Assembly: GCA_964458555.1 (NCBI GenBank)
Contig: CAYWJH010000005.1
Coordinates: 748-64,747 of the forward strand
Direction of reading: 5' to 3'
From: an uncultured Spirochaetaceae bacterium
GTDB taxonomy: Bacteria > Spirochaetota > Spirochaetia > DSM-27196 > SLST01
Length of the DNA stretch: 64,000 bases
Numbering within the stretch: the first letter of the stretch is position 1; every line of letters starts with the position of its first letter. The notes under the pieces were generated by a model, which saw only the letters and a program-made list of their open reading frames with translations, was not told where the DNA came from and made no database searches. Made by a program: the position numbers and the translations under genes. Shown here one piece after another: positions 43,928-52,870 of the stretch.

Positions 43928-44697
43928 GCTTCATCCTCTTCGTCGGACGTTTCAGCCGGCCCGAGAAGCGCGAGCATCCCGGTGTACCGGTCGGCGCCTT
44001 CGCGCCTGAAGCTCCCGAGCCGGGACGTCGTATACGTGCAGTGATTCGCCACGCTGACCACCGGAATGCCCAGCTCGCGGGCGATCCCCGCGTTCGCGGC
44101 GCGCATATCAAGGTACGGCCGATCGTCGCGATAAACAACCGCGTCGGCGCCCCACGCGCGGTACTCACGAGCGCGCCCGTCGTCGACCGCGTACGCTTCC
44201 GCGCTGATGCACGGGCCGATCGTGAGCACGAGGTCGCCTGGCCGCGAGCCGAATTCGCGCGCGAGCCGTTCCACCGCCACGCGCAGGATTCCGGTCCCGC
44301 GCCACCCCGAATGCAGGAGCGCGTAGGCACCGGTCCTCGAGTCGGCAAGATACAGCGGAGCGCAATCGCCCACGCCCACGGCGAGAAACGGACCGCCCGG
44401 TCCTGAAACGATTCCGTCGCCCTCGACGCGGTCCTCTTCGGCGGCGGTGCTTCCCACGCGGACGAGCTCGGCGGCGTCGAGCACCCGCTTCGAATGTGTC
44501 TGGCGAACCATGCACACCGTCCGGGGGTCGATGCCCATCGCGTCGAGGAGCGCGAGACGGTTCTCGCGGCGTCGCATATCGCCGACCGTCCGCAGCGTCA
44601 GCCAGGCAGGGTGGACGAACGGTACGGTCACACGGCCCGACGCCTCGGCGGAATCGAGCGGCAGCTCGAGTGAGATTATGGAGGTGGGTTGACTCAC
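43924..44697 (-). CDS. pgeF: YfiH/PgeF family (laccase-domain) purine nucleoside phosphorylase / peptidoglycan editing factor
   Basis: Motifs QTHS, ADC(A)P and HSGWRGT are present. 257 aa. Confidence 0.85.
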   Translation of the reverse strand: MSQPTSIISLELPLDSAEASGRVTVPFVHPAWLTLRTVGDMRRRENRLALLDAMGIDPRTVCMVRQTHSKRVLDAAELVRVGSTAAEEDRVEGDGIVSGPGGPFLAVGVGDCAPLYLADSRTGAYALLHSGWRGTGILRVAVERLAREFGSRPGDLVLTIGPCISAEAYAVDDGRAREYRAWGADAVVYRDDRPYLDMRAANAGIARELGIPVVSVANHCTYTTSRLGSFRREGADRYTGMLALLGPAETSDEEDEA

Positions 44698-46463
44698 GCC
44701 GTGTCCATCGTCGACTCGAGGTTTTGCAGGTCGGACAGCACGTCGGCGGCGCCCTTCACCCGCACGTGCGCCTGCTCGAGCCGCTTCACGTACCCGTCTG
44801 GCGAACGGCCGCCGAGCTCGCCCAGGTTGCTCACCGTATCGTAGCGTCCGCCGACGGTGCCGTACAGCACGCCTTGAACGAGCTCGCCGAGCAGGCGAAG
44901 CGTCTCGACTGCGCGATGGAGCAGCGCCGACGCGTCACCGTCTATCGACGCGACGAGCGAGAGCCGGCGCTCGCGCGCTGCCTCTGCAGGCAAAGCGTCT
45001 TCGTCGGCCTGCCGCCACGCCATCCCCAGGTCTCCGGTCGGTCGCAAGCGGACCTCCAAGTTGGCGATATCGGTCTGCAGGCGCTCGAGCGCGCGCCAGG
45101 CGCGGTCCATGTCCGCGCGGTTGTCGGCCTTGTAGAACTCGCCCTCACGGTACAGCGCCCCGACCGGACCAGCGACGTCGTGGGGAAGGATCTCGTCTAC
45201 GAACACCTTCAAAAGCCCCATGGACAGGCCGTGGCGCGCGGATTGGTCGAGTCCGCTCGGAGGGTAGCCGGGGAATACGCCGACCGACTCGACCTCGAAG
45301 GCAGAGCGCGCCTGCGAGAGCAGCGACTCGACGCGCCGCCGGTACGCGTAGCGCAGGTGAGCCTCCTCGACACGGTCACGCCAGAACGCCTTCCACTGGT
45401 TGAACCAGTCCTCTCCTCCGCCGGGGGCGGTGGGCCGGAAATGGATGTTCGCGTGCGCGATGCGCACGAGGTCTACGAGCGGGTATCGCCGGCCGAACTC
45501 GCGGATCTGCTCGTAGGCCTCGGCAAAGCGGCTCACGTGCTCCCGGACCACGCGTTCCACCGTTTCGTCCTCGCCTTCGAGGCGGTCGCGCTCCTCGTAG
45601 AGCGCGAGCGCCTCGAAGAGGACCGGGCTCGGATCCTGGCGCAGCCCCTCGAAGATGCCGGCGAGCCGCGCGAGCTCGTCGACGATGCGCGAGACGGGGA
45701 CCGGAACCGGCTCGCCGCCCGGCGCGGGTTCGAAGGCGAGCCGAATGCGGTCGAAGGGAAACGCGCTGAGCAGCATCAGCTCGTGCAGCCCCCGCACGTC
45801 GGTGTAGATCTTCTGACGGATCGCCGGCGGCAGCGTGGACACCGCCTCCTCCACCTCGTTCAACGCCCGGCGCCTCACATCGGCTTCCTTGAGCTCGGGC
45901 TGCTCGGCGGCGATCGCGAAGGGATCGGTGTCGCGCTGAAGCCGCTCGTGCGCCTCCGGCGCGTGAAGGCTCGCGAGAAACGCGACGAAGGCGCGACGCT
46001 CGCGGCCCATCACCCGGGAGAGGATATCCGCGAAGCGTCGCGAGTACTCGGACAGACGCGTAAAATCTTCCACGGCGCCGGGTCGCAGGTGTTGCTGCAC
46101 GGAGTCGAAACCGTGCGGGAGTCGGGCGTTCACGGTGCGACCGAGGTCGCGCAGAAGATAGCTCTCCACGACCGACAGCAGCTCCCTGCCGGTGAAGAAC
46201 GCGATGACGATCACGACGAGTCGGCGCACGAGACCCATCCGCCCGAAGCGTTCCTCGAGGTCGACCGTCGCGTACTCGTCGGGCGTTTCATCGGGCTCGA
46301 TCACCTTCACCGACGAGGCGATTCGCTGCAGCATGTCGCGCCGCTCGTTCGTCGAGAGCCCCGCCACGAGCTTGTCGAAGACGCTGTACTCAGCCACGGC
46401 TTCATCGTAGACGCGGTCGCGAGGTCGGTCAACGTCCAATTTCCTGCCCGTTCCGCTTGACAA
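44694..46463 (-). CDS. Conserved hypothetical protein (589 aa, largely helical); start codon uncertain
   Basis: High GC3 throughout and a 4-nt overlap with pgeF. No catalytic motif recognised. The annotated TTG start overlaps the -35 element of the divergent cimA leader promoter. Confidence 0.7.
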   Translation of the reverse strand: MSSGTGRKLDVDRPRDRVYDEAVAEYSVFDKLVAGLSTNERRDMLQRIASSVKVIEPDETPDEYATVDLEERFGRMGLVRRLVVIVIAFFTGRELLSVVESYLLRDLGRTVNARLPHGFDSVQQHLRPGAVEDFTRLSEYSRRFADILSRVMGRERRAFVAFLASLHAPEAHERLQRDTDPFAIAAEQPELKEADVRRRALNEVEEAVSTLPPAIRQKIYTDVRGLHELMLLSAFPFDRIRLAFEPAPGGEPVPVPVSRIVDELARLAGIFEGLRQDPSPVLFEALALYEERDRLEGEDETVERVVREHVSRFAEAYEQIREFGRRYPLVDLVRIAHANIHFRPTAPGGGEDWFNQWKAFWRDRVEEAHLRYAYRRRVESLLSQARSAFEVESVGVFPGYPPSGLDQSARHGLSMGLLKVFVDEILPHDVAGPVGALYREGEFYKADNRADMDRAWRALERLQTDIANLEVRLRPTGDLGMAWRQADEDALPAEAARERRLSLVASIDGDASALLHRAVETLRLLGELVQGVLYGTVGGRYDTVSNLGELGGRSPDGYVKRLEQAHVRVKGAADVLSDLQNLESTMDTA

Positions 46464-46485
46464 ATACCCCCAGCAGGCCGACTAT
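46457..46485 (+). promoter_or_regulatory. Candidate sigma70 promoter of the cimA leader (TTGACA-N17-GACTAT)
   Basis: Perfect -35 element but a weak -10 element. The predicted TSS falls at about 46491-46493, at the leader ATG, so the leader peptide mRNA may be leaderless. Confidence 0.35.
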
Positions 46486-46492
46486 AGGCGCA

Positions 46493-46567
46493 ATGAGTTG
46501 CACGCTCGCGCGCATCGCAATCGGTATTCTCATTATTGACGGACACCGAAGACCGCGGGACGTGTGA
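46493..46567 (+). CDS. Ile-rich leader peptide (24 aa: MSCTLARIAIGILIIDGHRRPRDV)
   Basis: Five Ile codons within 8 positions (atc gca atc ggt att ctc att att). A TGA stop lies 21 nt before the terminator stem and 70 nt before cimA. Confidence 0.55.
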   Translation: MSCTLARIAIGILIIDGHRRPRDV

Positions 46568-46587
46568 GCCTACGCCTGAGAGCACGG

Positions 46588-46618
46588 CCGTCTTCCCGCG
46601 GGAAGGCGGTTTTTTTTT
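46588..46618 (+). terminator. Attenuator terminator in the cimA 5' leader
   Basis: CCGTCTTCC-CGCG-GGAAGGCGG (9 bp including one G-U pair) is followed by T9. It lies 18 nt upstream of the cimA ATG and directly before its GAGGAGG RBS. Confidence 0.8.
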
Positions 46619-46636
46619 GGCCCGAGGAGGAGCACG

Positions 46637-48226
46637 ATGGCCGACAAGGAACTCTACGTATTCGACACGACGCTGCGCGACGGCATGCAGGGGCTGGAGA
46701 TCAACTTCACCCTCGAGGACAAGCTGCAGATTGCCGCGGCGCTCGACGAGATGAAGATCGACTTCATCGAGGGAGGCTTTCCCCTCTCGAACGAGAAGGA
46801 GGCCGGCTTCTTCCGAGAAGTGAAGAAGATGTCGTTCTCGCACTCGATGGTCTGCGCCTTCGGCTCTACGAGACGCGCCGGCGCGAGCGCCGATCGCGAT
46901 CCGCACATCACCGCGCTGCTCGAAGCGGAGACCCCCGGCGTCGTCGTCGTGGGAAAGACGTGGCTCGCTCACGTCGAGAAGGTGCTCGGGACCGACGAAG
47001 AGGAGAACCTGCGCATGATCGCCGACTCGATCGAGACGCTCAAGAAGCAGGGGCGCCACGTCATCTTCGACCTCGAGCACTTCTTCGACGGGTACGAGGA
47101 CAACCCCGAATACGCGCTGCGCGTGCTGCGAGCCGGGAGCGATGCCGGAGCGGACACGCTCTGCCTCTGCGACACGAACGGGGGCACCCTTCCCTCCGTG
47201 GTCACCCGAATCGTCGCGGAGCTTCCGCAGGAGAGCCTCGCGGCGCTCGGCGGCCACTTCCACAACGACGCGGGAACCGCGGTCGCGAACTCGCTCGCCG
47301 CGCTCGAATCGGGCGCCGTGCAGGTGCAGGGCACGATCAACGGCTGGGGCGAGCGCTGCGGCAACGCGAACCTCTGCGCGTTCATCCCGAACGCCGTCGT
47401 CAAACTCGGTTACGAGCCCGCGTGCGCCGAACGGCTCTCGCACCTCACCTCGCTCAGCCGCTTCGTCGCCGAGAAGGCGAATGTGATCCCCGACAAGCGC
47501 CAGCCCTACGTAGGCACCGCCGCCTTCAGCCACAAGGCGGGCCAGCACGCGGACGTCCTCGCAAAGGCCGACTACCTCATGGAGCACATCGACTCGTCGC
47601 TCGTGGGCAACGAGCGTCGCATCCTCTTAAGCGAGCTCGCCGGCAAGAGCACGGTGGTGGAGAAGCTCGCGAAATACGGGAGCTTCACGAAGAACGACGC
47701 GGTCGTGGGAGAGCTCATCTCGGTCCTCAAGGAGAAGGAGCGGCTCGGCTACGAGTACGAGGCCGCGGAGGCGAGCTTCGACCTCCTCGTCCGCCGCGCG
47801 CTCGGCCGCTACCAACCCATTCTCAAGATCAGGAATTACCATCTCGAGAGTTACAAGGCGTCCGAGTCGCCGTCGAAGACGGTGGGACGGATCTTCATGG
47901 AGGCCAACGGACGCGACCTCATGGGCGCCGCCGTGGGCGTGGGCCCCGTCGAGACACTCGATGCGGCGGTCCGCGACGCGCTCGCGAGCGACTACCCGTT
48001 CATCGGCAAGATCAGCCTCACCGACTATCGGGTACGCGTGCTCAACCCCGAGCGCGCGTCGGCGGCGCGCGTGCGCGTGTTCATCACCTCGACCGACCAC
48101 GAGAACCGGACGTGGGACACCGTGGGAGTGCACGAGAACATCGTAGAGGCGAGCTGGGAGGCGCTGGTGGACAGCCTCGAGTACTACTACAACGAATGCG
48201 TGCTCGAGTCCGACGAGCGCGCGTAG
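46637..48226 (+). CDS. cimA: (R)-citramalate synthase (LeuA/HMGL-like family, CimA type with a LeuA_dimer regulatory domain)
   Basis: 529 aa. LYVFDTTLRDGMQG start, HMGL-like barrel (HFHNDAGTAVANSLAA) and a C-terminal allosteric domain. The length and N-terminus fit the Geobacter-type CimA clade rather than LeuA (from memory). Confidence 0.8.
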   Translation: MADKELYVFDTTLRDGMQGLEINFTLEDKLQIAAALDEMKIDFIEGGFPLSNEKEAGFFREVKKMSFSHSMVCAFGSTRRAGASADRDPHITALLEAETPGVVVVGKTWLAHVEKVLGTDEEENLRMIADSIETLKKQGRHVIFDLEHFFDGYEDNPEYALRVLRAGSDAGADTLCLCDTNGGTLPSVVTRIVAELPQESLAALGGHFHNDAGTAVANSLAALESGAVQVQGTINGWGERCGNANLCAFIPNAVVKLGYEPACAERLSHLTSLSRFVAEKANVIPDKRQPYVGTAAFSHKAGQHADVLAKADYLMEHIDSSLVGNERRILLSELAGKSTVVEKLAKYGSFTKNDAVVGELISVLKEKERLGYEYEAAEASFDLLVRRALGRYQPILKIRNYHLESYKASESPSKTVGRIFMEANGRDLMGAAVGVGPVETLDAAVRDALASDYPFIGKISLTDYRVRVLNPERASAARVRVFITSTDHENRTWDTVGVHENIVEASWEALVDSLEYYYNECVLESDERA

Positions 48227-48241: not shown

Positions 48242-51484
<3,243 letters not shown>

Positions 51485-52653: not shown

Positions 52654-52680
52654 AGCGTCCCCGTGTCCGTGTCCGGACAT

Positions 52681-52704
52681 AAAAACGGCCGGCTGTGCCG
52701 GCCG
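52681..52704 (-). terminator. Rho-independent terminator after tRNA-Glu
   Basis: On the minus strand CGGCCGGC-ACA-GCCGGCCG (8 bp) is followed by TTTTT. The T tract ends at the first in-frame ATG of the carA ORF. Confidence 0.75.
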
Positions 52705-52719
52705 GCCGGATTGCTCCGT

Positions 52720-52791
52720 TACCCCCTAGCGGAATCGAACCGCTCTTTGAAGACTGAGAATCTTCCGTCCTAGCCGATAGACGAAGGGGGC
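52720..52791 (-). tRNA. tRNA-Glu (anticodon CTC)
   Basis: Manual cloverleaf: GCCCCCT/AGGGGGT acceptor stem (G1-U72), anticodon loop TTCTCAG, T-loop TTCGATT. 72 nt. Confidence 0.85.
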
Positions 52792-52799
52792 ATCTATCG

Positions 52800-52870
52800 C
52801 TTCCCGGGGAGGACTCGAACCCCCACTAGCAGAACCAGAATCTGCGGTGCTACCATTACACAACCGGGAA
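52800..52870 (-). tRNA. tRNA-Gln (anticodon CTG)
   Basis: Manual cloverleaf: TTCCCGG/CCGGGAA acceptor stem (the U1-A72 pair typical of bacterial tRNA-Gln), anticodon loop TTCTGGT, T-loop TTCGAGT. 71 nt. Confidence 0.85.

Follow-up and report, generated by a model that had tools for sequence, protein, structure and literature searches.

In this study we examine the region upstream of the citramalate synthase gene cimA in a stretch of 64,000 nucleotides (nt) from an uncultured Spirochaetaceae bacterium (contig CAYWJH010000005.1), called the window below. The product of the gene belongs to the TIGR00977 equivalog family, which bears out the gene name given in a preliminary description made from the sequence alone, and leuA models scored the same protein far under their cut-offs. 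On the upstream side cimA is flanked by a divergently transcribed DUF5312 gene, and on the downstream side carB converges on it from position 48242, so that cimA is monocistronic. Between the DUF5312 gene and cimA lie promoter-like hexamers, a 24-codon open reading frame (ORF) with a run of isoleucine codons, and a predicted intrinsic terminator, which cannot be the 3' end of the upstream gene because that gene is divergent (Table 1). We propose that these elements form a ribosome-mediated transcription attenuator that would couple cimA transcription to the supply of charged tRNA-Ile.

All positions in the preliminary description were recovered when the window was read from 46200 to 46800. The leader ORF carries five isoleucine codons in its regulatory run, three of them ATT, as had been claimed. 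In the 23 genes of the window isoleucine makes up 5.2% of codons, against 5 of 24 in the leader, and ATT accounts for 68 of 696 isoleucine codons (9.8%), against three of five in the leader. The terminator arms CCGTCTTCC (46588-46596) and GGAAGGCGG (46601-46609) enclose the loop CGCG (46597-46600) and are followed by nine T residues (T9, 46610-46618), the first two of which close a stem of 11 pairs in a pattern scan, so that the stem is longer than originally described. The window has a G+C content of 65.6%, and this T9 is its sole A or T homopolymer of at least 7 in 64 kb. Five hairpin-plus-T-run sites of comparable strength are present on the two strands of the window, that of the cimA leader being the only one on the + strand. 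The segment CCGCGGGA (46553-46560), near the end of the leader ORF, is the exact complement of TCCCGCGG (46594-46601) in the terminator, hence the 8-bp antiterminator of the preliminary description can be drawn as it stood. Only 18 nt separate the end of the terminator from the cimA start codon; since this gap holds the cimA ribosome-binding site and no promoter-like site was found in it, cimA must be transcribed by read-through. From the promoter geometry we infer a transcription start site (TSS) at about 46492-46493, at the leader start codon itself.

According to our model, transcription would start at the leader ATG or 1-2 nt from it, and the leader would be translated, probably from a leaderless mRNA. 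When Ile-tRNA is plentiful, the ribosome would pass the isoleucine run, reach the stop codon and cover segment 2; segment 3 would then pair with segment 4, the terminator with its T9 would form, and the polymerase would halt 18 nt before cimA. When Ile-tRNA is scarce, the ribosome would stall within the run, where three of the five isoleucine codons are the rare, wobble-read ATT. Such a stall would leave segment 2 free to pair with segment 3 once the latter has been transcribed, which would block the terminator and let the polymerase read into cimA, the gene for the first enzyme of the pyruvate/citramalate route to isoleucine. If the leader were not translated at all, segment 1 would pair with segment 2 and the terminator would form as well.

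The evidence that carries this proposal is comparative. The cimA protein was scanned against one genome per GTDB species, which gave 80 loci (L numbers below), 24 of them from Spirochaetota metagenome-assembled genomes with cimA 96-55% identical. The preliminary description had pointed to related genomes as the place to look for mini-ORF and hairpin, and the layout of the window (promoter, mini-ORF with isoleucine run, stop codon, terminator, cimA) is indeed found before cimA in 10 of the 24 (L001-L005, L008, L011, L013, L016, L021; cimA identity 96-67%). Isoleucine runs are present in all 11 cimA-only leaders, and the peptides are otherwise dissimilar, as in MMIAPATAGIILIITGNREPRGV, VTNQLIISSRTLIIDVIIGDDHAQEV, MRHVAGLLSSIIIICKQPLLREA and MKKGWGGDNGIIIAICIDSEFRREA; their length reaches 50 amino acids in L016, a locus from the genus Alkalispirochaeta. 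Together with the leaders of leuA-cimA loci described below, 18 spirochaete leaders could be compared. When the reading frame was set without regard to isoleucine, by taking whichever ATG or GTG came first, in any frame, from 4 nt past the -10-like hexamer onwards, the isoleucine-rich ORF was recovered in 18/18. ATH trinucleotides are distributed over the three frames of these leaders as 95/14/14 (binomial p ~2e-23, a value that overstates independence because the sequences are related). In every leader the -10-like hexamer is separated from the start codon by 6-11 nt, mostly 6-8 nt, the distance from the stop codon to the end of the T-run is 50-61 nt, and the hairpin is followed by 7-10 T residues in a row, even in genomes of ~65% G+C, where such runs are very rare. 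TTGACA is found at the equivalent position throughout (TTGACC in L018). The short distance between the -10-like hexamer and the start codon leaves no room for a Shine-Dalgarno sequence; this, together with the conserved TTGACA, supports the leaderless leader mRNA that the preliminary description had read from one promoter. Start codons that consistently fall at the predicted TSS also suggest that these spirochaetes translate leaderless mRNAs as a matter of routine.

A covariance model (R1), built from the 3' halves of 19 spirochaete leaders, matches the window at 46546-46618 with 61.4 bits (E 4.5e-11), the window sequence being itself part of the training set. In the whole 64 kb it gives this one hit on the + strand and a weak hairpin match of 15.8 bits on the - strand, hence no second copy of the leader was found in the window by R1. 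A scan of metagenomes yielded almost no new spirochaete leaders, only duplicates of those at L013 and L016. At L012, L015, L022 and L030 cimA sits further inside an operon, the beginning of which was not located. At L014 a TTGACA promoter lies ~35 nt before a stand-alone cimA, with neither leader ORF nor terminator (L014:130-467); further upstream this locus carries repeated GCGGAAAGCCC-like units and a long inverted repeat, GCGATCAGGGAATTTGC...GCAAATTCCCTGATCGC.

In seven other spirochaete loci leuA lies directly upstream of cimA (L006, L007, L009, L010, L017, L018, L023). In L009 and L017 the leuA product was confirmed to be 2-isopropylmalate synthase; in L006 and L007 it was recognised by the conserved LeuA N-terminus IFDTTLRDG. 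In all seven a homologous leader precedes leuA, with like promoter geometry, the GGAAG/CTTCC antiterminator and a terminator, and all seven are matched by R1. These leaders encode both leucine and isoleucine, for example MSNIVLASLPGLALPISILLGPDIGPQGA, MNGSTILLSILLGLLIIGKPVTEG, MNGTIALLSILLGLLIINGTRVEG and MKNSIIIITIILLLGNIILIGKDNISEG. At two further leuA-cimA loci, L019 and L020, no leader was present within the 330 nt examined. L006 and L007, whose cimA is 79% identical to that of the window, have kept the divergent DUF5312 gene and its promoter; most simply, the lineage of the window would have lost leuA from the operon, after which the leader became isoleucine-only. That leader codons follow operon content is predicted by ribosome sensing and is not predicted by an RNA or protein sensor. 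As such these loci might be seen as a natural experiment in which leader codon content adapts to operon content, and they offer a rule for annotation: an isoleucine-only leader marks cimA, a leucine-plus-isoleucine leader marks leuA-cimA.

The stall and stop positions of the ribosome assumed in the preliminary description were modelled by masked folds of nine cimA-only leaders, cut just before the 3' arm of the terminator, with the stall mask reaching to +12 nt. With the ribosome masked on the last isoleucine codon, an antiterminator of -19 to -26 kcal/mol forms in 9/9; once the mask is moved to the stop codon, no more than -2.5 to -6.5 kcal/mol is left, again in 9/9. Full-length folds free of ribosomes give the 1:2 helix and the terminator in the window, with comparable 1:2 pairing in the other leaders. 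Counted from the end of the stop codon, the 5' strand of the antiterminator occupies -14 to -3 in most leaders. In L011 it is shifted to the 3' side of the stop (-2 to +14), and for some leaders additional pairs are predicted 3' of the stop.

Whole-leader alignments made with MAFFT (A1, A2) put the antiterminator out of register, since terminator arms differ by 1 nt and the stop codon of L011 is displaced, and they were replaced by an alignment of 16 distinct leaders anchored on the conserved GGAAG/CTTCC core alone (A3). Over the 10-bp antiterminator helix 83.8% of cells in A3 are paired, and five of the ten pairs change on both sides (20 cells). None of 500 shuffles matched the observed percentage paired, the number of cells changed on both sides or the covariation score, and 33 of 500 reached the count of five such pairs, statistics that are inflated by the core-anchored alignment and by the kinship of the sequences. 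Registers slid by 1-3 columns give 41-61% paired. The consensus structure found by RNAalifold is the terminator, with 13 pairs, 8 of them with compensatory change. The terminator loop is not constrained by termination itself, yet it tracks the 3' end of the leader across lineages: the loop CGCG goes with CCGCGG in the window, TGCC with GGCA in L021, ACG with CGT in L010, GA with TC in L017, and TCAC with GTGA in L016. Cognate duplexes reach -18.8 kcal/mol against -14.7 kcal/mol when terminators are swapped between 14 lineages (permutation p ~5e-5, which is partly due to shared base composition and relatedness).

Several observations have to be set against the attenuator, besides the inflation of the covariation statistics. 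The support for it is computational in all its parts. The antiterminator of the window comprises just 8 continuous bp: beyond the loop it takes up three bp of the terminator arm and a single base on the 3' side. At equilibrium the terminator is roughly its equal in stability or surpasses it, hence the switch must be kinetic. When ribosome-free RNA is cut before the 3' arm of the terminator, the antiterminator prevails in roughly one leader out of two. Folding had been proposed as a check; the masked folds gave the expected switch, and the stability of the free fold of 46490-46640 did not exceed that of shuffled sequences to a significant degree (z = -1.79). The antiterminator duplex of the window is no better than that with shuffled partners, and in most individual sequences the best duplex does not stand above that of a shuffled leader. 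As these single-sequence statistics are not significant, the weight of the case falls on the comparative data. No Shine-Dalgarno sequence precedes the leader, so that its translation would need the predicted leaderless initiation; some leaders begin with GTG, and the stand-alone cimA of L014 has no leader. Taking these points together with the conserved geometry, the covarying antiterminator and the codon content of the leaders, we put the probability that the leader is a ribosome-mediated attenuator at about 85%.

It might be possible that the terminator is conditional on a sensor other than the ribosome, such as an undescribed riboswitch, a tRNA-binding leader or a protein-dependent antiterminator, and that the mini-ORF is incidental. 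The pair of terminator and antiterminator, which is the best-supported part of the system, would serve any sensor, and translation of the leader ORF, with no Shine-Dalgarno sequence, is a prediction. However, upstream of segment 2 it is codon identity in one frame that is conserved and not a structured aptamer, the ORF starts at a fixed distance from the promoter and stops at a fixed distance from the terminator, and such a sensor would not predict that ORF content shifts with the operon. Searches for known families point the same way: at E <= 10, Rfam returned only chance matches for 46300-46750 (Bcj11, 15.8 bits; L10_leader, 14.2 bits, through the terminator), Rfam 15 at gathering score returned tRNAs and no leader family in 39 related loci, and a T-box was detected neither in the leader of the window nor near cimA in the Bacillota loci examined. 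We consider a non-ribosome sensor very unlikely.

If the mini-ORF were instead the gene of a small hydrophobic peptide with its own terminator, cimA would have to be transcribed from a separate promoter. Short peptides rich in isoleucine and leucine do resemble small membrane peptides, and long leaders exist, namely the one of L016 and a 41-residue isoleucine-rich ORF at L064. Against this stand the 18 nt between T-run and cimA, with their ribosome-binding site and no promoter-like site, the missing conservation of the peptide outside its isoleucine and leucine runs, the hydrophobic run of the window, which comprises 8 residues and is followed by a charged tail, and the overlap of the stop codon with an antiterminator strand that covaries with the terminator. 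Such a peptide gene seems to us extremely improbable. The leader ORF could also act after transcription, by translational coupling, masking or mRNA stability, with hairpin and T-run mainly as stabiliser or pause site; leaderless short ORFs of mycobacteria are described as attenuators that act on expression of downstream operon genes (10.1101/834739). The hairpin of the window, however, has all features of an intrinsic terminator (11 bp, GC-rich, T9 directly after it), the T-run is kept in every spirochaete leader even at high G+C, and the cimA ribosome-binding site lies outside the hairpin and is unpaired in folds. We would give post-transcriptional action a very slight chance. For these reasons we prefer transcription attenuation by the translating ribosome.

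Leaders of similar layout are found outside Spirochaetota as well, where an isoleucine-rich mini-ORF followed by a GC hairpin and a T-run precedes citramalate synthase genes of 45-49% identity; the six that were checked all proved to be TIGR00977 equivalogs. In Planctomycetota the mini-ORFs read MIGQVNGQSIGPVIGMIRQP (L038), MIASNLIISIAPVIGTTIGH (L054), ...LPIAIITITIRG (L041), MSHSSIIAEIIMIPSHGR (L047), MIGRIIGGDAPG (L049) and MATAPNIIAGIIIIISGLRG (L080), and isoleucine-rich leaders also lie before cimA on the metagenome contigs L128, L148 and L156. In masked folds a clear stall-dependent antiterminator appears in L047, L049, L080, L148 and L156, and the contrast is weaker in L041 and in the longer leaders L038, L054, L070 and L128. 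In several of the non-spirochaete leaders the start codon lies 6-10 nt after a -10-like box. Model R1 matches none of the Planctomycetota or metagenome leaders, hence they are either independent inventions or have diverged past recognition. We lean slightly towards the view that the cimA leader of the window typifies a widespread, hitherto undescribed class of leaderless, isoleucine-specific attenuators at the entry of the citramalate route. On this view a single homologous family of leaders would span Spirochaetota, remodelled from leucine plus isoleucine to isoleucine-only on loss of leuA, with independent counterparts in Planctomycetota and other little-studied phyla.

Two further loci deserve mention. 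A Gemmatales cimA homologue (L026:2869-2976) is preceded by a mini-ORF that ends in a valine run (VRPVRVVVVSEG, then the stop codon), in place of an isoleucine run, and by a terminator; its specificity may have changed, or the ORF may have arisen by chance, the leader being very GC-rich. A Latescibacterota cimA homologue (L064:~690-820) has a 41-codon, very isoleucine-rich ORF (...RSIIGIIAGLIIIAIIG, then the stop codon) ~250 nt upstream, followed by a hairpin without a clear T-run, which may be an attenuator or a small membrane peptide.

Table 1. Features of the cimA leader region and positions of related leaders; plain numbers are positions in the window, numbers after an L handle are positions in that locus.
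Feature	Position	Strand	Basis or remark
-35 hexamer TTGACA	46457..46462	+	sequence; leader promoter
-10-like hexamer GACTAT	46480..46485	+	sequence; 17-nt spacer, 7 nt before ATG 46493
Leader-peptide ORF, MSCTLARIAIGILIIDGHRRPRDV	46493..46567	+	24 codons and stop TGA 46565-46567
Segment 1, predicted anti-antiterminator (1:2) 5' strand	46504..46518	+	pairs with 46555-46569 in free RNA; minimum-free-energy folds
Regulatory codon run I-A-I-G-I-L-I-I, proposed ribosome stall site	46514..46537	+	Ile codons ATC, ATC, ATT, ATT, ATT
Segment 2, antiterminator 5' strand, CCGCGGGACG	46553..46562	+	complementarity, covariation; ends 5 nt before stop-codon end
Predicted intrinsic terminator	46586..46618	+	11-bp stem 46586-46611, loop CGCG; pattern scan, fold, RNAalifold, model R1
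Segment 3, antiterminator 3' strand	46592..46601	+	inner terminator 5' arm, loop and first base of 3' arm
cimA Shine-Dalgarno sequence GAGGAGG	46624..46630	+	3' of terminator, unpaired in folds, not sequestered
cimA, citramalate synthase, 529 amino acids	46637..48226	+	TIGR00977 equivalog, 592.3 bits, cut-off 450 (NCBIfam)
Divergent DUF5312 gene	44694..46397	-	Pfam PF17239, 311.9 bits; bounds intergenic region
leuA-cimA leaders	L006:231-378, L007:1042-1190, L009:1231-1359, L010:~1250-1375, L017:1311-1450, L018:~1320-1461, L023:1231-1359		
Non-spirochaete leaders	L038:2808-2974, L054:2793-2954, L070:2793-2954, L041:1485-1636, L047:2825-2937, L049:2772-2889, L080:2690-2809		

For the divergent DUF5312 gene the probable start is GTG 46397 and not TTG 46463, as the N-terminus M-A/S-x-Y/S-S-V-F-D-K-L-V is kept in relatives. 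A promoter-like TTGACC-17-TACGAT (46432..46404, - strand) ends 6 nt before this GTG, and the same geometry of promoter and GTG is present in L002, L006 and L007. Hence the DUF5312 gene also looks leaderless, a hint that leaderless mRNAs are perhaps common in the lineage. Elsewhere in the window, two tRNA genes (52720-52791 and 52800-52870, - strand) are followed by a strong GC hairpin with T5 (52681-52725, - strand) directly before the carA start at 52680. This site was considered as a PyrR attenuator and rejected, since the neighbouring phosphoribosyltransferase gene is apt and the hairpin follows the two tRNA genes; it looks like a plain tRNA terminator and not like a pyrimidine attenuator.

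The preliminary description knew of no such attenuator for cimA or for spirochaetes. A full-text literature search found no leader-peptide attenuator of cimA or of citramalate synthesis, within a partial coverage to which subscription journals and regulon databases may add, and nothing relevant on leader peptides in Spirochaetes or Planctomycetes within the same partial coverage. To our knowledge, almost no cis-regulatory RNA has been described for Spirochaetota or Planctomycetota. The target gene cimA, the isoleucine-only specificity and the phyla thus appear to be new, as judged from sequence comparison and these searches. The mechanism itself is textbook leader-peptide attenuation, so that a specialist might find the case neat and not startling. 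The citramalate (threonine-independent) route to isoleucine is absent from E. coli, and what is known of its regulation, from work on CimA of Leptospira, is chiefly that the enzyme is feedback-inhibited; a cimA attenuator would add transcriptional control with a readable logic, and it would bring Spirochaetota, and in a parallel form Planctomycetota, into the range of leader-peptide attenuation.

The classical attenuators of the Yanofsky type are those of the enterobacterial ilvGMEDA, ilvBN and leu operons. With them the cimA leader shares a short ORF with clustered codons for the end product, alternative hairpins (1:2, 2:3 and 3:4, as predicted for the cimA leader), an intrinsic terminator ahead of the first biosynthetic gene, rare regulatory codons, and a codon mix that mirrors the products of the pathway. 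Unlike them it is isoleucine-only, belongs to Spirochaetota, lacks a Shine-Dalgarno sequence and has its start codon at the predicted TSS, and neither sequence similarity nor an Rfam leader family match connects the two.

Leaderless attenuators of this kind have been noted before. In Deinococcus deserti 14 leaderless leader-peptide attenuators were predicted (PMC4007540), and the polycysteine short ORFs of mycobacteria belong to the same type (10.1101/834739). As proposed for the cimA leader, an AUG or GUG lies at the TSS, a Shine-Dalgarno sequence is lacking, and the amino acid concerned is abundant in the peptide; these leaders lie upstream of amino-acid or tRNA-synthetase genes (PMC4007540, 10.1101/834739), and the main text of the Deinococcus paper yielded no example before cimA. 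These systems involve other phyla and other amino acids, and their TSSs were measured, whereas that of the cimA leader follows from promoter geometry. The branched-chain leaders of Bacillota that use a T-box, and the leucine-rich attenuator peptide of the Staphylococcus aureus ilv-leu operon (PMC5794164, as far as the accessible part of that source goes), share the logic of a terminator/antiterminator pair that reports tRNA charging. A T-box, however, binds uncharged tRNA directly and without translation, unlike the proposed cimA leader.

Related systems are also the actinobacterial leader peptides before ilvB and leuA, for example the three-hairpin attenuator of Corynebacterium glutamicum ilvBNC (PMC11857589, PMC10272879, PMC1262725). 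From the accessible parts of these papers, they too are branched-chain leader peptides outside Proteobacteria, in genomes of high G+C, for which a three-hairpin model was first predicted by comparative genomics. By the same sources they mix isoleucine, valine and leucine codons and precede other genes in another phylum, whereas the spirochaete leaders have isoleucine alone for cimA and leucine plus isoleucine for leuA-cimA. If the widespread class proposed above is real, ribosome-mediated attenuation and the leaderless translation of its sensor peptide would be far wider than the proteobacterial and actinobacterial cases.

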